Source of the DNA: an uncultured Methanosarcinaceae archaeon
Lineage (GTDB): Archaea > Halobacteriota > Methanosarcinia > Methanosarcinales > Methanosarcinaceae
Reading direction: 5' to 3'
Assembly: GCA_963847185.1 (NCBI GenBank)
Contig: CAWJYV010000010.1
Location: forward strand, 224,001-288,000
DNA length: 64,000 nt
The translations under genes were made by a program, and so were the position numbers. Shown here piece after piece: positions 10,556 to 46,385 of this stretch; the first letter of the stretch is position 1; every line of letters starts with the position of its first letter. The notes beneath the pieces were generated by a model. That model worked only from the letters and a program-made list of their open reading frames with translations. It did not search any database and was not told where the DNA came from.

Positions 10556-10691
10556 ACTGAGATAAATAACTGAGATAAATAACTGAGATAAATAACTGAG
10601 ATAAATAACCAAGATAAATAACTGAAGATAAATAACTGAGATAAATAACCAAGATAAATAACTGAGGTAAATAACTGAGATAAATAACTGA
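10556..10691. repeat. 13-bp tandem repeat (ACTGAGATAAATA), about 10 copies
   Basis: Directly visible, with variants ACCAAGATAAATA and ACTGAGGTAAATA. Lies 26 bp upstream of the nitroreductase start. Confidence 0.95.
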
Positions 10692-14567: not shown

Positions 14568-15398
14568 TTACTTTTTGATCAGGTCAAAAACCCACCTGCT
14601 AATGCCTGGAGCGACGTTTCCGCTGCGTCTGTAAAGTTCCACATCAAGCCCCATTTTTTTGTACTCAGTAATCAGCCCTGGAATCTGGGATTCAGCCTTG
14701 AAGGTGTAGAAATGAACGTATCCATCTTTTCTGACAAGTTTTGAGATTTCATAAAGGAAATGATCCATGCCATAAGGTGTAGGCACAATGGCTCTGTCAA
14801 ACCCATTTTCAGGAACCTGGAGGTTATTAATCTGGGAGATCTCCTCAAAATCTCCCTGAATAACCTTTACTTGCCTTTCAAGCCTGTTGATTCGAAGATT
14901 TTCCTGCAAGTAGGTGCAGGCGTCGGGATTTATTTCGACAGCATACACTTTTGCACCTTTTCCTGCAGCAGGAAGCACAAAAGGGCCTACTCCAGCAAAA
15001 GGAATTATGATGCATTCCCCAGGTGTAATTTTTGAGATAACTCTTTTTCTTTCTGTATACAGACGAGGATTAAAAAAGACTTTTTTTACATCAAGTTTGT
15101 AGGCATAGCCGTTTTCCCTGTGAATGGTTTCTGCAGATTCTCCGAGCAGAAGTTCAAAATCAGCAACTCTATGCTCTCCTTCAAGCTTACTCACCTTATT
15201 AAGTACAGCCCGCGTGTTTCCTCTCATTGAAAACAGTTTTGAGGCAATAACCTCTTTATAAGCCGAAAGTTCTGCAGGAATGGAGATTACTGCCACATCT
15301 CCCACATAATCAAAACGTTTTGGCACCATATGAAGCAGAGGTTCCTCAATTATTCCTCTCATCTCGTCTCGTAAACTCACCCTGTTTCGAAAACTCAT
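14568..15398 (-). CDS. Met-10+/Trm5-Tyw2 family SAM-dependent methyltransferase
   Basis: FDYVGDVAVI, HRENG..YKLDVKKVFFNPRL, PFAGVGPF and EINPDA. Confidence 0.85.
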   Translation of the reverse strand: MSFRNRVSLRDEMRGIIEEPLLHMVPKRFDYVGDVAVISIPAELSAYKEVIASKLFSMRGNTRAVLNKVSKLEGEHRVADFELLLGESAETIHRENGYAYKLDVKKVFFNPRLYTERKRVISKITPGECIIIPFAGVGPFVLPAAGKGAKVYAVEINPDACTYLQENLRINRLERQVKVIQGDFEEISQINNLQVPENGFDRAIVPTPYGMDHFLYEISKLVRKDGYVHFYTFKAESQIPGLITEYKKMGLDVELYRRSGNVAPGISRWVFDLIKK

Positions 15399-15554
15399 TC
15401 AGAATACCTCTGCCTGTCGAACCATAGGCTTTTCAGGATAAATTTTTCAGGATTCTTTTCAGAATATGTTTCGGATAAATTTTCCAGCTTTGCTTTTCAG
15501 GAGTTATTCTAATATATCTTTTTTGTTATAGAAATATAAAATACGGGAAAGAAG

Positions 15555-15618
15555 TAAAGTACAGGGAAATAGGAAATAAAGTACAGGGAAATAAAGTACA
15601 GGGAAATAAAGTACAGGA
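15555..15618. repeat. 15-bp tandem repeat (TAAAGTACAGGGAAA), about 4 copies
   Basis: Directly visible in the intergenic region. Confidence 0.85.
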
Positions 15619-15683
15619 ACAGCGGGAAAAATAAAACCAGAAAATTCTCAAAAACATTTCTGGATTATACAGGATTAATTTCA

Positions 15684-16091
15684 ATGAAAATTATTATAGA
15701 GACTCCAAAATACAGTTTTTGGAAGTATTGCAGAACAGAAAAGGGCTATGAAAGATCTTTCTTTTCCCCTCTGCCTGCAATTTTCAATTACGGCTTCATA
15801 GAAGGGACAGAAAGCCCTGACGGAATGGAGGAAGATGTGGTCGTACTCGGACCTCGCCTGCCTAGAGGAAGTACGCTTGAAAGGGAAGATTTTGATGGAA
15901 TAGTAAAGTTCCTGGACGATTCTGTTCGGGACGATAAGAAAGTGGTGTATATCAGCGGGTTTTCTTCTCCTTTTTTGCTTGCTTATTATTTCAGAATTTA
16001 TGCTCTTTTTAAAATCTTCCTCTATGCATGTCGCAAAAGAAAAATCACAGCATGTAAGTTTGAAGGAATTGTGCTAAGAAAATCGCGCTAA
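15684..16091 (+). CDS. Short family I inorganic pyrophosphatase-like protein
   Basis: IIETPK...FNYGFIEGT..PDGMEEDVVVLG...DDK motifs; only 135 aa. Confidence 0.7.
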   Translation: MKIIIETPKYSFWKYCRTEKGYERSFFSPLPAIFNYGFIEGTESPDGMEEDVVVLGPRLPRGSTLEREDFDGIVKFLDDSVRDDKKVVYISGFSSPFLLAYYFRIYALFKIFLYACRKRKITACKFEGIVLRKSR

Positions 16092-16208
16092 CAGGTTTCT
16101 AAAAACGCTGAAAAATTATCAGATTCTCTAACCTTTTATTTCTTCTGATAAAACAAGTTAGAAAACTACTAATAATTTAAAGAAGCTTAAAAAAAAGGTG
16201 CTTTTAAC

Positions 16209-17351
16209 ATGCCTTTTCATGTAATGCTGATCCCGACCCTTGGCTGCCCTGCTAATTGCAGTTATTGCTGGAGTTCCGAAGAGAAATCCCCGATAATGAG
16301 TATGGAAACCATAAAAGAAGTGGTTGAATGGCTTAAAGGTTTCAGGGGAGATTCGGTTACTTTTACTTTTCATGGTGGGGAACCTCTTCTGGCAGGTGCG
16401 GATTTTTACAGGGAAGCATTACCTCTACTGGCTGAAAGCTTAAACTCCAGGAGAATAGCCTTTGCGATACAGACCAACCTCTGGAAACTTACTCCCGAAA
16501 TAGCCGAGATTTTTGCCGAATACAATATTCCTATAGGTTCCAGTCTGGACGGCCCGCAGGAACTCAATGACCTGCAGCGGGGAAAAGGTTACTATGAAAA
16601 AACCATGAGAGGACATGAAATTGCCAGGGCTCACGGGCTTGATGTGAGATTCATTACCACTTTTACTTCCTATTCTGTAAAGTTCAGGGAGGAGATTTTC
16701 AATTTTTATCTTGAAAAAGGCTTTACTCTTAAGTTGCACCCCTGCCTGCCTTCTATAAAAGGGGAAAACCCCGAAAAATGGACCCTTTCTCCGGAAGAAT
16801 ACGGAGAACTTTTAATTTATCTTCTGGATAAGTATCTGGAGAACATTGGCAGAATTGAAGTTATGAATATTGATCACCTCTGCAAATGCGTTTTCACAGG
16901 CAGGGGTACTGTCTGTACCTATGTTGACTGCATGGGAGACACATTTGCAGTCGGCCCTGATGGAAGCATATACCCTTGCTATCGCTTTGTGGGCATGCCA
17001 GAATACGTTATGGGAAATGTTTATGACCACCCTACCATGGCAGACCTTGCCCAGTCAGATGCCTGGAAGCTCATGCACAGGTTTAAAGAATATGTGGACA
17101 CAGCATGCGGCAAATGCGCCCATATCAAATACTGCAGAGGCGGCTGTCCTTACAATGCAATAGTTCCTACAAACGGTGAAATAAAAGGTGTAGATCCGCA
17201 CTGCATTGCTTATAAGATAATTTTTGATGAGATAAACAACAGGGTCAACGAGGAAATGTTTGGTTCCTCTGGTATGATGAATATGTTCCAGCCTCAGTCT
17301 ATGGAGCCTTCAAGATCGGGCATAATGTCTCTAATGCTTAAAAAGATCTAA
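16209..17351 (+). CDS. Radical SAM/SPASM enzyme, methanogen putative peptide-modifying family (TIGR04083-like)
   Basis: CPANCSYC radical SAM motif and FHGGEPLL; SPASM motifs GSIYPCYRF and CGKCAHIKYCRGGCPY...DPHC. Confidence 0.88.
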   Translation: MPFHVMLIPTLGCPANCSYCWSSEEKSPIMSMETIKEVVEWLKGFRGDSVTFTFHGGEPLLAGADFYREALPLLAESLNSRRIAFAIQTNLWKLTPEIAEIFAEYNIPIGSSLDGPQELNDLQRGKGYYEKTMRGHEIARAHGLDVRFITTFTSYSVKFREEIFNFYLEKGFTLKLHPCLPSIKGENPEKWTLSPEEYGELLIYLLDKYLENIGRIEVMNIDHLCKCVFTGRGTVCTYVDCMGDTFAVGPDGSIYPCYRFVGMPEYVMGNVYDHPTMADLAQSDAWKLMHRFKEYVDTACGKCAHIKYCRGGCPYNAIVPTNGEIKGVDPHCIAYKIIFDEINNRVNEEMFGSSGMMNMFQPQSMEPSRSGIMSLMLKKI

Positions 17352-17446
17352 AACAGGTTATGTAGCAAATATCTGAAAGCGGGTTAATACTGAAAATTCA
17401 TGAATTAATCAAGCTTTTAATTATCTGGTAATCATACTTTAGCCGT

Positions 17447-17546
17447 GGGTATGAGTTATTGATCAAGTCCGTAAAGCGAGTATATCTACTGCATATTGGG
17501 GAAATGTAGGGAGATTCCTGTGCTTTCAGTTTTCAATAACTCACCC
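17447..17546. mobile_element. MITE-like repeat family A, copy 1 (about 100 bp)
   Basis: Ends are GGGTATGAGTTATTGA ... TCAATAACTCACCC; homologous to 27362-27464 and 41627-41727. Confidence 0.7.
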
Positions 17547-17716
17547 TACTACCTCAAATTTCTTGTGCAATATATTGAGAATGCACTAAAAATGCCTTAT
17601 TTTGTATTTAATCGAAACCTCTTTATTCTTGAGTTGCATAAATAGGATAGTGGATTCCGGTTTGTTTGTAAATCAAATAAATAATTATCGGAGATCTTGT
17701 GATCTGGAAGGTTTGT

Positions 17717-17827
17717 ATGGACCATGATGACTTGATACAGCAAAACAGAATAATGAACAAAGTAATGATCTGTACTTTCGGTGTACTGCTTACTTTGTTG
17801 GCGCTAATCGGTTTGTATGGTGTCTGA
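17717..17827 (+). CDS. Small single-TM protein (36 aa), unannotated
   Basis: MDHDDLIQQNRIMNKVMICTFGVLLTLLALIGLYGV*; GGAAGGT Shine-Dalgarno-like sequence upstream; below the ORF track cutoff. Confidence 0.6.
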   Translation: MDHDDLIQQNRIMNKVMICTFGVLLTLLALIGLYGV

Positions 17828-18502
17828 ACTTTATCTTTTAAAGGTTAGAGTTCAGGAGAATGCGGCAATTTAATCGGAAGAATTGCAGGCTTCTCATAAC
17901 CCTGACTTTTCGTAAAGCGCAAATGAAATAAGAGTTTATTTTGGACAAGGAACCGGATTTTTCTTTATGGTTCCAGTTGTTACCTGAAGTTCCCTGGGAC
18001 CTCAGGAAGCCCGGAGTTTTCGGGTTTTCCGCAGGTCTTACAGGAAGGAACATTTCCAGCTTATTGGCCAGCCCGGCAGTGGACGTTGTGGAAAAAATGG
18101 CTGGCTAAAAGAGTGGAAAATAACAACTTCTTAAGTACAATCTCCAGTTTCTTGGCTGGCCCGGCAGAGGACGTTGTGGAAAAAATGGCTGGCTAAAGGA
18201 ACGGAACATAATAACTCATCAACTGCAATATTCAACTCATTAGCCAGCCCGGCAGAGGACGTTGTGGAAAAAAATGGCTGGTTAAAAGAGCGAATATAAT
18301 TTTCTACACTTTATACCAGGTTCTGAAAAAGGCTCCGGAAAGGAGCTTATAAAAGAGGGTTTTAAAATCCTGGAAAAAGGTGTTAAGGACAGGAAGAGAA
18401 CAGGGAGTGTGAACCCTAAAAGAGTAATCGTTGAGACGGCCCTGGGTGATGAGAACAGAGGAGATGAGATCTCCTTTTTTCAAGTTTCAGGGTCACTTTT
18501 TT
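17824..18502 (+). ncRNA. Candidate long structured RNA (or 3' UTR of the 36-aa ORF) containing a triple repeated hairpin
   Basis: A series of stems whose mismatches are G-U pairs on the + strand; three 88-nt units at 18064, 18152 and 18240; ends in a hairpin plus T-tracts at 18460-18502. Confidence 0.6.
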
Positions 18503-18562
18503 AAACCAATTTATTTAGGTTCAAGTTTGAGCTTAAAATCTGGTGGCAAAATTATTTTTTTT

Positions 18563-18683
18563 CAGAAAACCAATTTTATTCTCAAATCAGTAAATATTCA
18601 TAACTATTTTTGTGGTCAGAAACTATATTGATTATTCGGAATACGGGATTTAGAGAAGCGATTTTGAGTTTCGGGATCGACTC
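18563..18683. mobile_element. MITE-like repeat family B, degenerate copy
   Basis: Colinear similarity to 21896-22028; ends ATTTTGAGTTTCGGGATCGACTC. Confidence 0.5.
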
Positions 18684-18812
18684 TTAGAGTAAGATTATCT
18701 TACAATATAGGTAATACTATCTCATAATTCGCGTGAGATTATTTTACAATTCAAGTAAGATTATTTTATGATTTAGGTGAAGTATCTCACAATTGAGATT
18801 GGGTGAAATATT

Positions 18813-19442
18813 TTGAAACCTGGAGCAATGTTGGTCTGGAAGGAAACAAAAGGATACTGTAAATTGAGAAGGAGTAGTCTTTTATTTCTTTCTTTACTTG
18901 CAGGCCGGGTTGCAGCAAAAATTCTTGACCTCTGTGCTCTTCCTGAGATCATGGATTTACTATGGCAGATAATTAAATTCAATACCCGACACCTCACTCC
19001 AATAGAGGAACAGGAAGCTAGAAGCGTATTTGGAGAGAGTATCAATTATTCAAAAATACGTATCGATGAACATTCGCTCATTGCCTGGATAGGAGCAAAA
19101 ATAAACAAGTGTTCGAGTATGGGTGTTACCACTTTCCATACAATTAATTTTAATCAAAAAATCAGGACTGAAACCGGAAACCAAGATATGAAATGGCTTA
19201 TTCACGAGTTAACCCATATTGCTCAAATGGAGAGGTCAGGTTCGAAATACTTTGTTGAATCACTTTATGCACAGGCAACTGAAGGATATGCATACAAGCC
19301 TGGATCCAGACATCATTTGCGTGAGTATAACCGAGAGCAACAGGCATCCCTTATTGCAGATTATTATTTTACACTTATTTCAGGAAGCTCGACTGCAATT
19401 TATGATAGCTATATCGCAGAACTGAAAGCTGGAGAATTATGA
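18813..19442 (+). CDS. HExxH zinc metallopeptidase-like protein (DUF4157-like)
   Basis: LTPIE...VFGESINYSKIRI, WLIHELTHIAQ and NREQQA. Start codon uncertain. Confidence 0.7.
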   Translation: MKPGAMLVWKETKGYCKLRRSSLLFLSLLAGRVAAKILDLCALPEIMDLLWQIIKFNTRHLTPIEEQEARSVFGESINYSKIRIDEHSLIAWIGAKINKCSSMGVTTFHTINFNQKIRTETGNQDMKWLIHELTHIAQMERSGSKYFVESLYAQATEGYAYKPGSRHHLREYNREQQASLIADYYFTLISGSSTAIYDSYIAELKAGEL

Positions 19443-19532
19443 GATGTAGAGGATAAATATAAAATAAAGCCACAATTTACTGATAATCTCAAACAATTCA
19501 ATTCATTCATTTCATCCTTTTATTATTTTATT

Positions 19533-20156
19533 TTACCTTTTTATTATTTTCATTACCTCAGCAAGATCCTCAGCAATCATCTCTCGTTTTGATTTCTCGA
19601 TCAGGTAATTCTGCCCAGTCTGCACGTATGAAGGAAAAACTCGCTTGCCCTGATAATAAAATTCATTCTTCCTGATTTTGTATGTAGAGCCGGCTGGAAT
19701 AACGTTTTTGCCGCTCTGCCGCTTGCTGATATAGTTAAAAGCCTTTATCGCAACATCTCCCATTAACAGGTAAACCTCAAGATTCGGAAAGAGAGCAAGT
19801 TCTTTTTCCAGCATAAAAGAACAATTCTTGATTGTTACAGCCGAAACCCCGTATTGAATCTTTGCACATTTTACCGCAGTCGTCAGGTAGAATCCAAGGT
19901 CAAGAATTTCCTGCATGCTGCTCACTGAAACTCCTGCGTCATTGAAAGCCTGAAGAGTTGTTTTCAGGTAAAAAGATTCTTCAGCCCCATAGAAGTAATC
20001 TTTCCGATCCTCAGGCGGAGCTTCGGAAATCATGACTGTTTTGATCTTCTCAGGCTGTATGTCCACAGCAGGTACAAAATATCCTCTTTTGTTTATGTCG
20101 GAACAGGGAAAGTCCTTACATTCAATGTACTCAGAAGGTTTCATTTTGAGACTCAC
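19533..20156 (-). CDS. Uracil-DNA glycosylase superfamily protein
   Basis: MISEAPP, YLTTAVKC and LLMGDVA UDG-like motifs. Confidence 0.75.
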   Translation of the reverse strand: MSLKMKPSEYIECKDFPCSDINKRGYFVPAVDIQPEKIKTVMISEAPPEDRKDYFYGAEESFYLKTTLQAFNDAGVSVSSMQEILDLGFYLTTAVKCAKIQYGVSAVTIKNCSFMLEKELALFPNLEVYLLMGDVAIKAFNYISKRQSGKNVIPAGSTYKIRKNEFYYQGKRVFPSYVQTGQNYLIEKSKREMIAEDLAEVMKIIKR

Positions 20157-20482
20157 CTTAATTTGACTCCAGCTTACAGGGAATGATTTTTACAGATAAA
20201 TTTGTTATGTTATTTATCCTGAAAAAATTAAAAGATATGTACAAAAATATTCACAAAAGATACATACAAAAGATATGGGCAAATTCAATTCTAAAACTGG
20301 CGAGTAAAAAAGAATAGGCACAAAAGCAGACCAGCTCGAATAGCTCAAAAATTAGACTTGTTTTCTCTTTCTGAGCAATCTGTATCCTCTGTAACAAGGC
20401 AACAGGGAGAAAACAGCCATAACAAGACACAATCTGGCTGATAATATTGACCGCAGCTGTCCTGCAGACTGTTTGTTTAGCG

Positions 20483-20833
20483 TTAACACACTCCCAGGCC
20501 TTTGAGAAGCTGCTTTAAATCCGCCTTTGAGCTCTCAACAAAGACTCCCCTTGTTCCTGAAATTATTATGGTCCAATCGCCGCCGCTGTACATCCAGTTA
20601 TGCTGAGGTACCCAGTTCATTTTGTAGAGCTCAGTATAAGCGCTAGCCAGAGCATCGAACATCATGTTCACGGCTCCGCAGAATTTAGCGGTCATCCGTG
20701 CCATCTCTTCCGGCATCTCACCTTTTGATTTGTAATCCACAAGTTTTCCTTCGGAACTGAAAATTCCGGCTGCCATTACCCCATCAAATTTCAGAAGCTC
20801 ATCTAAAGATAAATTACATTCCTGTCTGTTCAA
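20483..20833 (-). CDS. DUF2173 family (roadblock/profilin-like) protein
   Basis: LDELLKFDGVMAAGIFSSEGKLVDY...W.P...WMYSGGD; TTG start with GGGGGG upstream. Confidence 0.75.
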   Translation of the reverse strand: MNRQECNLSLDELLKFDGVMAAGIFSSEGKLVDYKSKGEMPEEMARMTAKFCGAVNMMFDALASAYTELYKMNWVPQHNWMYSGGDWTIIISGTRGVFVESSKADLKQLLKGLGVC

Positions 20834-21287
20834 ACCCTAACCCCCCAAATAAGTTAATAATTTCTGGAAATATCCGGAACTGAAGCTTGCAAAGCTTGAG
20901 GGCTTCATGTAAAATTCCCAATATATCCACAGGTTCACAGGCTTTTTTCGTTGTCTGTGTATAAATTGTATTGAGATAATATTATATAAATATATCAAAT
21001 TAAAAGGGGGGAATCGAGTCATATATTAGAAGACCAGTTTTTAGTACCGTAAAAATTTGCAAAACCAGAGATAGAGTCAGTCCACCACTCTGGTATATCT
21101 ACCATTCACTTACTATTGTCCTCTCACCATGTTATTTTAATTGTATAATACTCCTCACCATCATTTGTTCACCAGTATTCGCTTACCAGTCTATTTCACC
21201 AGCACCCGCTCACTGCTATTACTGCATATACGAGAAAATTACAGTATGCACAAAGCTATTATAAAGTCTGACTTACACTAAAATCTC

Positions 21288-21893
21288 ATGAAAAGATGGC
21301 CCTTAAATTCGAAAACTTCGGAAAAAGCATATCCCGAAAAAACAATCCTTGAGAAGACAAATTCAAAAAAACCGCAGGCAAAAATCCCGCAGAAAGGAGA
21401 AGCCGGTTCTTTTTGGGAAGACAGGGGTGACAGATACCACTGCGGGGTTGACCTTTATATCCAAGAAAACACTGAAGTTCTTTCGATCGAAGAAGGGATT
21501 GTTGTGGAAACCGGGCTGATGACCTCTCCTGAGATTTTGCCTTACTGGAACACAACATATTATACAATTATCGAACATAGCCAGGGGTTCTGTAAATATG
21601 GAGAGCTTTCAGGTTTTGCTATCAGAAAAGGTGACAGCATAGAATCCGGACAGCTGATAGGATACGTGGGAACAGTCCTCAATTCCGAAAAAATAAACGA
21701 GTCCTGCCCTTATTATATTCAGAAACTGAAGCATAAAAATCCAAGCATGCTCCATTTTGAGCTATGGGAAAACAGACCCATTACTACTCACAAAAATTAT
21801 CTAGGGGGAAACTGGTTTTCAGAAGAGAAGCCTGAAAACTTAATGGATCCTACAAGGCTGCTGGAGTCCCTATATCTGAAATCCCTATTGTAA
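21288..21893 (+). CDS. M23 family metallopeptidase-like protein
   Basis: HCGVDL (HxxxD), IRKGDSIESGQLIGYVG and MLHFEL. Confidence 0.85.
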   Translation: MKRWPLNSKTSEKAYPEKTILEKTNSKKPQAKIPQKGEAGSFWEDRGDRYHCGVDLYIQENTEVLSIEEGIVVETGLMTSPEILPYWNTTYYTIIEHSQGFCKYGELSGFAIRKGDSIESGQLIGYVGTVLNSEKINESCPYYIQKLKHKNPSMLHFELWENRPITTHKNYLGGNWFSEEKPENLMDPTRLLESLYLKSLL

Positions 21894-31353: not shown

Positions 31354-31394
31354 TAAATAGAAAAATCAGGGGTAACAAATAAAAGAATTAAGAA

Positions 31395-31515
31395 GGAGTT
31401 ACGGGGAGAAGAGAGTGGCTAAAAGATAAAGGAGTTGAGAGGAGTCACTGGGAGAAGAGAGTGGCTAAAAGATAAAGGAGTTGAGAGAAGTCACTGGGAG
31501 AAGAGGGAGTGACTC
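31395..31515 (+). repeat. 46-bp tandem repeat, about 2.6 copies, each with an AGTCACT/AGTG(G/A)CT hairpin
   Basis: GGGAGAAGAGAGTGGCTAAAAGATAAAGGAGTTGAGAG(G/A)AGTCACT is repeated. Confidence 0.85.
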
Positions 31516-45749: not shown

Positions 45750-45933
45750 GTAACTTAAGATCCCAGAATGCTTATTTCAAGCTATATACATATAATTAAA
45801 GTTCCCAAACTAAAAATACGCTCCAAAAATCAAAATTTTAAGTAACTTAAGATCCCAGAATGCTTATTTCAAGCTATATACATATAATTAAAGTTCCCAA
45901 ACTAAAAATACGCTCCAAAAATCAAAATTTTAA
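45750..45933. repeat. Perfect 92-bp tandem duplication
   Basis: 45750-45841 is identical to 45842-45933. Confidence 0.92.
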
Positions 45934-46385
45934 GATAATAAATGAAATTAAGCTCTGAAATCGATAACTGAATATAATAGGAGCTTCATTTTTTACAAAC
46001 TATATTTATTTGGAACTACGACATCCAACTACATTTTTCTATATGCTAAGTTTAACATTAAAAAAGATTAATAAGCTTTTAAAAATTAAATTGAGTGTAT
46101 TACTCTTTTTAAATACAAAATAGACTATTTTACGTCTGTATTTTACTCTGGGGAACAATGAAAAAACATCTAATCTAGAAAATAAGGTCTATTAATCCTT
46201 AAAAAGTGAACTAATTTTTAAGAACCCTAACATATATGTAAAGAAAAAAAGCTTATTTTTAGCTAAGGCAACTTTAGGAAGAGAGAATAATTAGTTTTTG
46301 ACTTGATAACTTCTGAAAATTGGTTGTGCATTATTTATAAAAACGTGCGTTGCATTTTTTCACGTTACCTATACCCCGCGCTAAA

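Follow-up and report, generated by a model that had tools for sequence, protein, structure and literature searches.

A lineage-specific triplication of a covarying stem-loop in the structured 3′ region of a small-protein mRNA of Methanosarcinaceae

We analyzed a 64,000-nt stretch of DNA from an uncultured Methanosarcinaceae archaeon (GenBank assembly GCA_963847185.1, contig CAWJYV010000010.1, positions 224,001 to 288,000 of the forward strand; hereafter the window, numbered from its first letter), in which a preliminary description had singled out three hairpin repeats. At this locus a small open reading frame (ORF) for a peptide with a transmembrane helix is followed on the + strand by a conserved structured region of ~675 nt (17828-18502), and the repeats lie within that region. 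The array is a lineage-specific triplication of one stem-loop, which we call hairpin A, inside the structured 3′ region of a small-protein mRNA. With a 5′ end placed by homology and a 3′ end at a U-tract, the transcript would run from ~17650 to ~18502 on the + strand (Table 1). Genomes, loci and genera are denoted below by our handles in G, L and g, with G000 for the genome of the window.

Tandem Repeats Finder reports a tandem array at 18055-18300 with a period of 88, 2.8 copies, 81% matches and a score of 308. We delimit three hairpin A units of 88 nt on the + strand (window 18051-18299), in agreement with the three stem-loops with a 10-bp stem and a near-invariant loop that had been noted before. 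Counting the linkers, which are mutually homologous, the units are 75-85% alike. Their loops are alike except at one position, which is T in unit 1 and A in the other two units, and for an additional A in unit 3. In the unit 2 stem, changes at positions 6 and 7 (C>T and A>G) yield U-G and G-U pairs on the + strand; in unit 3, a G>A converts a G-U pair into A-U and a C>T on the 3′ side makes a G-U pair. Read on the minus strand, these substitutions between units are mismatches, as the preliminary description had stated, and its remark that the lower stems differ yet still pair holds in every unit. Folding energies also favor its + strand RNA structure in all three units. RNAfold gives −26.4 kcal/mol (z −3.0) on the + strand versus −18.6 (z −2.5) on the minus strand for unit 1, −23.9 (z −2.2) versus −10.0 (z +1.2) for unit 2, and −22.8 (z −4.3) versus −18.3 (z −2.9) for unit 3. 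In the window's own genome the loop is confined to the array, with three forward matches, no reverse matches and none to a backwards control at ≤3 mismatches. A scan of 15000-21500 on both strands against Rfam 15 (cmscan, E≤10) returned six matches of 14-22 bits against gathering thresholds of 45-167, none of them on the hairpins, which the preliminary description had likewise not recognized as a known family.

Table 1. Features of the small-protein transcript in the window (CM, covariance model; UTR, untranslated region; R1, the model scored)
Feature	Position	Strand	Details	Basis
Putative archaeal promoter	17613-17627	+	CGAAA then CTTTATT, ~23-37 nt upstream of the predicted start	Read from the sequence
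Predicted start and 67-nt 5′ UTR	17650-17716	+	gtggattccggtttg...ctggaaggtttgt	Homology to the M. mazei sRNA 5′ end
Small ORF	17717-17827	+	36 aa, C-terminal transmembrane helix (MDHDDLIQQNRIMNKVMICTFGVLLTLLALIGLYGV)	sORF_305 ortholog
5′ domain of the structured 3′ region	17828-18050	+		Conserved blocks in the alignment of relatives
5′-domain hairpin	17949-17974	+	GGAACC...GGTTCC, U-rich loop	RNAalifold
Hairpin A unit 1	18051-18122	+	Stem 18064-18073 / 18099-18108, loop 18074-18098	CM R1, 99.1 bits
Hairpin A unit 2	18139-18210	+	Stem 18152-18161 / 18187-18196, loop 18162-18186	CM R1, 89.7 bits
Hairpin A unit 3	18227-18299	+	Stem 18240-18249 / 18276-18285, loop 18250-18275	CM R1, 87.2 bits
Hairpin B remnant	18316-18374	+		Alignment with relatives whose B loop is GRGAAGAAGAYGTTGTGGWAARA
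3′ domain	18375-18502	+		RNAalifold, 18 sequences
3′-domain hairpin	18401-18417	+	CAGGGAGTGTGAACCCT	

Built from the 11 units in the clade of the window, a covariance model recovered hairpin A at all homologous loci; the resulting alignment of 28 units from 21 loci is fitted to the model and hence leans to its structure. In this alignment 92.4% of the cells are standard pairs, 12 of the 18 pairs change on both sides, and none of 500 column shuffles reaches any of five covariation measures. Slid controls pair at 37-55%, so that despite the model-fitted alignment the margin over them is large. Wobble pairs recur at particular positions: pair 16-64 is GU in 17 units, 21-56 is GU in 10, 18-60 is UG in seven, and a fourth pair is of this kind in six. 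Mean identity is 0.91 in the loop columns (15 of 26 invariant), 0.83 in the paired columns (3 of 36 invariant) and 0.39 in the remaining unpaired columns. Conservation and covariation in relatives, which the preliminary description had marked for follow-up, are thus both present, and its proposal that one loop is presented three times is borne out as a fixed loop on covarying stems.

Several structural variants were discarded along the way. With the units aligned by MAFFT alone, indels on the 3′ side hid the upper stem from RNAalifold, and the covariance-model alignment took the place of this approach. An inner 4-bp helix in the loop (CGGC/GUUG), proposed by RNAfold, was rejected since by eye it is not kept in hairpin B (described below) or in genus g13, and a long-range helix between the linker ACUCAUCA and GAUGAG of the 3′ domain was dropped because by eye it is not kept in G137 or g13. 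Inspected by eye against the rules for K-turns, the stem has no adjoining GA dinucleotide.

The conserved element extends well beyond the repeats. When 20 genomes are aligned with MAFFT, conservation starts just past the stop codon of the small ORF and stops with TTCAGGGTYAC and the T run after it. The small ORF is full-length and directly upstream of the RNA in 20 of the 20 loci examined, the window copy aligning with those of 19 relatives. The larger neighbors vary: only G170 has the radical-SAM gene that lies upstream in the window, and 11 other loci carry a divergent ferredoxin and aldehyde:ferredoxin oxidoreductase pair upstream instead. Since the small ORF always adjoins, the conserved unit consists of this ORF and ~500-700 nt of downstream RNA. 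What had first been taken for an independent ~88-nt repeat RNA is one domain of this larger small-protein mRNA. The whole 3′ region folds at −216.9 kcal/mol (z −4.6) on the + strand versus −167.4 (z −1.8) on the minus strand, with 20 shuffles each. Outside the array, the six pairs of the 5′-domain hairpin are unchanged in 14-17 of 17 sequences and show one compensatory change (MAFFT and RNAalifold), and the 3′ domain has 23 predicted pairs, seven of them with compensatory changes, such as CG>UA in three sequences at 185/240 (RNAalifold, 18 sequences). The 3′ domain also holds an invariant block, AGAGTAATCGT, and a terminal helix resembling a terminator, GGCCCTGG / TTCAGGGTCAC, which encloses GAGG/CCTC and is followed by six T (18497-18502). 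A Met-Ala-Gly mini-ORF (ATG-GCT-GGY-TAA), also noted previously, is present in all three units but not conserved in relatives (G023 reads AATAGCTGG), and we dropped it as a functional frame.

The upstream part of this transcript has a counterpart in Methanosarcina mazei Go1, whose small ORF sORF_305 is identical to that of G136. According to PMC11456600, sORF_305 (NC_003901.1:4055630-4055746:+) is curated "yes" by ribosome profiling (Ribo-seq) and has bottom-up proteomics support; the supplement gives a TMhelix at 20-37 and describes the ORF as lying "on sRNA". The same supplement lists the + strand small RNA (sRNA) MM_3414_4055563_4055960_2, with a length of 398 nt and RNA-seq values of 75-390 rpkm (reads per kilobase per million). 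This sRNA starts with GCGGATTCCGGTTTG, 67 nt before the sORF_305 ATG, and ends inside the hairpin A loop (...GGACGTTGTAG) (PMC11456600). In the window, gtggattccggtttg at 17650, likewise 67 nt before the ATG, is homologous to this start. With an orthologous upstream ORF and a homologous 5′ end and 5′ UTR, the window locus belongs to the same sORF_305/sRNA family. By tblastn, 16 of the 25 database loci hold sORF_305 in a single frame over all or nearly all of its length, and three more give weaker or partial matches.

As far as the published record goes, the M. mazei transcript resembles that of the window in its 5′ end, 67-nt 5′ UTR, small ORF, 5′ domain and hairpin A. The published annotation breaks off within the loop of hairpin A and treats the remainder as separate small ORFs, whereas our alignments delimit one structured region; M. 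mazei has one hairpin A together with a second stem-loop, hairpin B, whereas the window has three A units and a decayed B. In the M. mazei sRNA sets, with which the preliminary description had suggested a comparison, the ortholog is listed as an sRNA with sORF_305; a description of the loop motif, of hairpin B, of the 3′ domain or of changes in copy number was not found. The main text of PMC11456600 does not mention the locus. The 5′ part of the transcript and the small protein are thus already on record for M. mazei, and the transcript may be a dual-function sRNA.

Hairpin B, recognized by pattern in 14 of the 20 genomes, lies ~65 nt downstream of hairpin A and has different stems and a related loop, GRGAAGAAGAYGUUGUGGWAARA, so that the core common to A and B is AGARGAYGUUGUNGNAARA. 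In a plain MAFFT alignment 84% of its cells pair and both partners vary in 5 of 14 pairs; the hairpin A model matches it weakly. Among genomes with the motif, most have a single hairpin A together with a hairpin B. The remnant in the window keeps the outer stem CCAGG/CCTGG, its tip now reads GGCTCC-GGAAA-GGAGCT, and the loop motif is lost. Hairpin A is present in three units in G000, G170 and G023 and in two in G172, and these four genomes are exactly those in which the B motif has decayed but the B region and the 3′ domain are otherwise present; no B-type covariance-model match was found in the four multi-unit loci (L013-L016). The window's clade has lost the motif of B and multiplied A to two or three copies. 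Two more genomes, G150 and G067, lost B through larger deletions. Overall, the loop motif occurs in at least two copies per RNA in 18 of the 20 aligned genomes. The units of G000 match those of G170 one to one (99, 99 and 93%), and units 2 and 3 of G023 are 96% alike mutually and 64-73% like units 2 and 3 of G000, a pattern that suggests more than one expansion.

The window's lineage is represented in metatranscriptomes. Contigs from four runs of three studies (soil, bioreactor and rice paddy) cover 17667-18399, starting at 17667, 17693, 17674 and 17699 in the four runs, and one contig of 522 nt spans the small ORF, the 5′ domain and units 1 and 2. These data are unstranded and DNA carry-over is possible, for which reason the contigs are supportive only. 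Contigs in two runs of one study depart from the window at ~18396-18399 and continue in foreign letters, which we take to be sequencing adapter and hence the sign of a discrete fragment end within the 3′ domain. The stretches 17300-17666 and 18434-18900 had no contig cover, which was not used as evidence. One low-depth contig in run X2 joins 18066 to 18158, skipping 91 nt; a related strain may differ in the number of units, or the repeat may have collapsed during assembly.

The 17830-18510 stretch was found by blastn in 25 of 177 genomes of the family, including the window's own. By genus, it occurs in 19 of 58 genomes of g1 (Methanosarcina) and 4 of 6 of g13, along with a single 37-nt match in g16 that the covariance model did not find. 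Of 59 Methanosarcina genomes, the window's own among them, 16 are positive with the hairpin model (13 of the 39 of good quality), each with its matches at a single locus. In a sample of the order the model finds matches in 7 of 151 genomes, all g1 or g13, and in none of 102 genomes from five other families. The motif is found only in Methanosarcina and a sister genus. A scan of public genomes with the sequence pattern returned 106 loci. Among the 80 listed, ~70 are in bacterial or other non-Methanosarcinales records; as the pattern fixes only 17 bases, chance most likely accounts for them (~70 expected by our own estimate). Two of these off-lineage loci tested with the model (L110 and L120) matched the loop only or weakly, and 4 of 10 metagenome pattern loci matched the loop only, without the hairpin.

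The small ORF is more widespread. A profile finds it in 44 of 177 family genomes (31 of 58 in g1, 6 of 6 in g13), and weak matches elsewhere sit inside long ORFs and look like noise. Loci with the ORF and without hairpins follow two patterns: a deletion that leaves the terminal hairpin directly behind the 5′ half of hairpin A (G159, G092), or a decayed hairpin remnant (G078, G173). In several genomes a second, paralogous small-ORF module lies 0.6-1 kb downstream, with the same promoter/5′ UTR string (AAATAGGATAGTGRATTCCGGTT) and its own downstream RNA (L201 in G159 at ~2060-2230, also L190, L196 and L195); the window genome has a single module. G028 (L009 / L033) carries an insertion of ~1.5 kb right past the hairpin B loop, which splits the element into halves at 1981373-1981475 and 1982959-1983041. 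A DDE transposase gene directly follows the RNA in G130.

We tentatively read the loops as putative multivalent docking sites for an RNA-binding protein, a reading to which we give somewhat less than an even chance. The stem is free to change as long as it pairs, and it holds out a near-invariant purine-rich loop. A trans-acting factor with sequence specificity would read this loop, most likely a dimeric or oligomeric RNA-binding protein, and having the loop more than once would be of advantage. Binding could then set the fate of the mRNA (stability, processing, translation or membrane localization) or titrate the factor. A protein partner is favored on indirect grounds: because crude tests found no complementary RNA site in the genome, the ferredoxin mRNA, the 5′ UTR or ORF starts, because selection covers at least 19 bases, and because the M. 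mazei footprints over the non-coding RNA fit nuclease protection, whether by a bound partner or by structure. As a possible but doubtful elaboration, the 3′ region might form an archaeal ribonucleoprotein platform on which two or three loops capture or titrate a regulator at the membrane. Such a platform would be a functional counterpart, built of unrelated parts, of bacterial sponge or scaffold RNAs (Csr/Rsm-like or OLE-like); each time a loop was lost, tandem duplication would adjust its valency over evolution. As the transcript encodes a membrane peptide, the RNA could be drawn to the membrane during peptide synthesis.

Several observations weigh against a protein that docks on multiple loops. 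G150 and G067 keep only one loop, and the link between loss of B and gain of A is not independently replicated because all instances fall in one clade. In Methanosarcina the small ORF is present in 31 of 58 genomes versus 15 of 58 for the hairpin; about half of the carriers of the ORF thus have no hairpins, which makes the element dispensable and accessory. With unstranded contigs that may include carried-over DNA, the strand of the transcript is shown for the M. mazei ortholog only. Base-pairing and kissing interactions, too, typically involve large open loops of ~25 nt, and the tests for an RNA partner were crude, covering one genome and start regions only, with no conservation filter.

An RNA partner would suit the loops in so far as they are long, predicted to be unpaired and invariant over 19-25 nt, as a base-pairing seed would look, and M. 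mazei sRNAs acting through conserved loops are known; the 3′ region, within the mRNA or released from it, could act as a trans-acting sRNA or an RNA sponge. We consider this unlikely in view of the searches for a target. No complement of the 25-mer occurs in the window's own genome within three mismatches, and duplexes with 5,911 crudely defined ORF starts of that genome are no better than those of shuffled loops (168 at ≤−20 kcal/mol versus 125-442 in eight shuffles). Pairing gave no signal against the start of the divergent ferredoxin/aldehyde:ferredoxin oxidoreductase mRNA (energies within or worse than shuffles at 11 of 11 loci) or against the transcript's own 5′ UTR and start region (mean z 0.08, 20 loci). 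That the loops kiss mutually, their quasi-self-complementary GAYGUU core pairing A with B or one RNA with another to build multimers, seems very improbable. GACGUU can pair with itself over six positions (two of them G-U) and also with GAUGUU, and most aligned genomes have the two or more copies required, but six pairs with two to four wobbles form a weak duplex and leave the invariance of the other ≥13 loop bases unexplained. It is quite unlikely that the hairpins are processing or stability elements, with an endonuclease cutting within or beside the loops or the stems blocking exonucleases, so as to yield defined sub-fragments and set the lifetime of the mRNA. The end of the M. mazei sRNA annotation in the hairpin A loop and the discrete contig ends at ~18396-18399 in two runs of one study would fit such a role; however, the 398-nt end may reflect read length, the M. 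mazei Ribo-seq calls listed run past it, the 18396-18399 end lies in the 3′ domain outside the hairpin loops, and a cleavage site rarely needs 19-25 invariant bases.

The Ribo-seq record raises the further question of whether the region engages ribosomes, either to make more small proteins (sORF_306-308, mini-ORFs) or with GAGG loops as decoy ribosome-binding sites. In the supplement of PMC11456600, sORF_306, 307 and 308 tile the 3′ region and carry "manual curation yes" by Ribo-seq, with no proteomic evidence listed there. Most A loops contain GAGG, with an AUG ~13 nt later. Yet sORF_306 is split over two or three frames in G134, G150, G135 and G155, even in the closest relative, sORF_307 is found in two other loci only, the loop AUG is missing in G023 and others, B loops read GAAGA instead of GAGG, and by eye only the four loop bases GAGG can pair with the 3′ end of the genome's 16S rRNA, so that we hold ribosome engagement to be improbable. 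Still less credible, to the point of being extremely improbable, is that the repeats form no + strand RNA at all and are instead an array of DNA operators, a mini-CRISPR, a mobile repeat or a piece of a protein gene on one strand or the other. A protein could recognize inverted repeats at the DNA level, but here the arms covary around a fixed spacer, the opposite of an operator, and the G-U pairs are specific to one strand. A period of 88 nt is reminiscent of repeat-spacer spacing, but the linkers are homologous, orthologs have single units and the whole 88-nt period is repeated, which together exclude a CRISPR array; a single locus in each of the 16 positive genomes likewise argues against a dispersed repeat. 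An antisense ORF is open in G136 (141 codons) and G147 (105 aa), but at ≥90 aa (the RefSeq MM_RS17280 type) it is intact in only 2 of 11 loci and frameshifted in the nearest relative. The window ORFs over the region break even in G170, where 17838-18053 on the minus strand is frameshifted. Two specific ideas about the loop were also rejected: mimicry of the 23S sarcin-ricin loop (own 23S, ...AGTACGAGAGGAACC...), with ~6-7 bases in common and in A loops only, and anti-Shine-Dalgarno pairing, which by eye is weak and confined to GAGG.

In M. mazei, sORF_306-308 and the opposite-strand MM_RS17280 overlap the structured RNA as annotated at NC_003901.1 4055754-4056174. Because no frame is conserved in relatives, they may be mis-annotations, and this suggests that sORF_306-308 and the RefSeq antisense ORF at the locus are by-products of a structured RNA rather than genes.

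Beyond the transcript, a 22-nt unit (AGTAAGATTATCTTACAATTCA) is repeated 3.7 times at 18688-18768, directly upstream of a 209-aa ORF (18813-19442), and may be a set of regulator binding sites. In several genomes a small Cys-rich gene (MGKCESC...LCTECA..., zinc-ribbon-like) lies a few hundred bases downstream of the module (for example L200 in G071 at ~2042-2180, also L199, L195 and L007); it is absent at the window position. Other repeats in the window include a 13-nt unit, ACTGAGATAAATA, in 10.4 copies at 10556-10691, also readable as a 66-nt period; perfect 15-nt repeats (GGAAATAAAGTACAG, 3.1 copies) at 15551-15617, just upstream of a pyrophosphatase-like ORF (15684-16091); a 46-nt purine-rich unit in 2.7 copies at 31379-31505 (91%); and a perfect tandem duplication of a 92-nt AT-rich unit at 45750-45934 (100% matches).

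The locus thus combines a validated small-protein mRNA with a conserved, covarying RNA of ~500-700 nt, whose loop is under strong selection and varies in copy number between species. Our searches of the literature, in main texts, and of Rfam turned up no account of the structured 3′ region as a whole, of the loop motif on two hairpins, of its covariation or of its triplication in this lineage. To our knowledge, methanogens have few known structured RNAs of large size and hardly any known RNA-protein regulatory modules. As M. mazei is genetically tractable and has published Ribo-seq and RNA-seq, the reader of the loop is directly testable.

Among known systems, the bacterial protein-sponge RNAs CsrB, RsmY and RsmZ have many hairpins with short purine-rich GGA loops and a copy number that varies by lineage. 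The array resembles them in presenting one purine-rich loop motif on several hairpins in lineage-variable number. GGA is present in the A loops, whereas B loops have GAAGA. The array differs in having two or three hairpins with 25-nt loops and a 19-nt core, in lying in an mRNA 3′ region, and in matching no Rfam family; nor is there a CsrA gene, as PF02599 gave no matches in the window's own genome (99.8% complete), with the control positive in 3 of 14 reference genomes. OLE RNA, a large structured RNA with the membrane protein partner OapA, is similar to the locus in being large, conserved, restricted to a narrow lineage and located beside a membrane-protein gene. Our locus has no match to it in sequence or structure in the Rfam scan, and its 36-38 aa protein is encoded upstream on the same transcript. 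Type I toxin mRNAs such as hok encode a small hydrophobic peptide on a strongly folded mRNA, and here too a peptide of 36-38 aa with one transmembrane helix is encoded on a folded mRNA (z −4.6). Tandem paralogous modules in some genomes add to this likeness, although most genomes have only one or two copies. Unlike for hok, we know of no antisense RNA for this locus, and the listed detection of sORF_305 in growing M. mazei argues against strong toxicity. M. mazei sRNA154 is a stand-alone sRNA that acts through two conserved loops by pairing with known mRNAs. Likened by description, both are Methanosarcina RNAs with repeated conserved single-stranded loops, but the window RNA is an mRNA 3′ region, for which crude target tests found no partner. 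We class the locus with repeated-loop regulatory RNAs, as a real and moderately surprising case.

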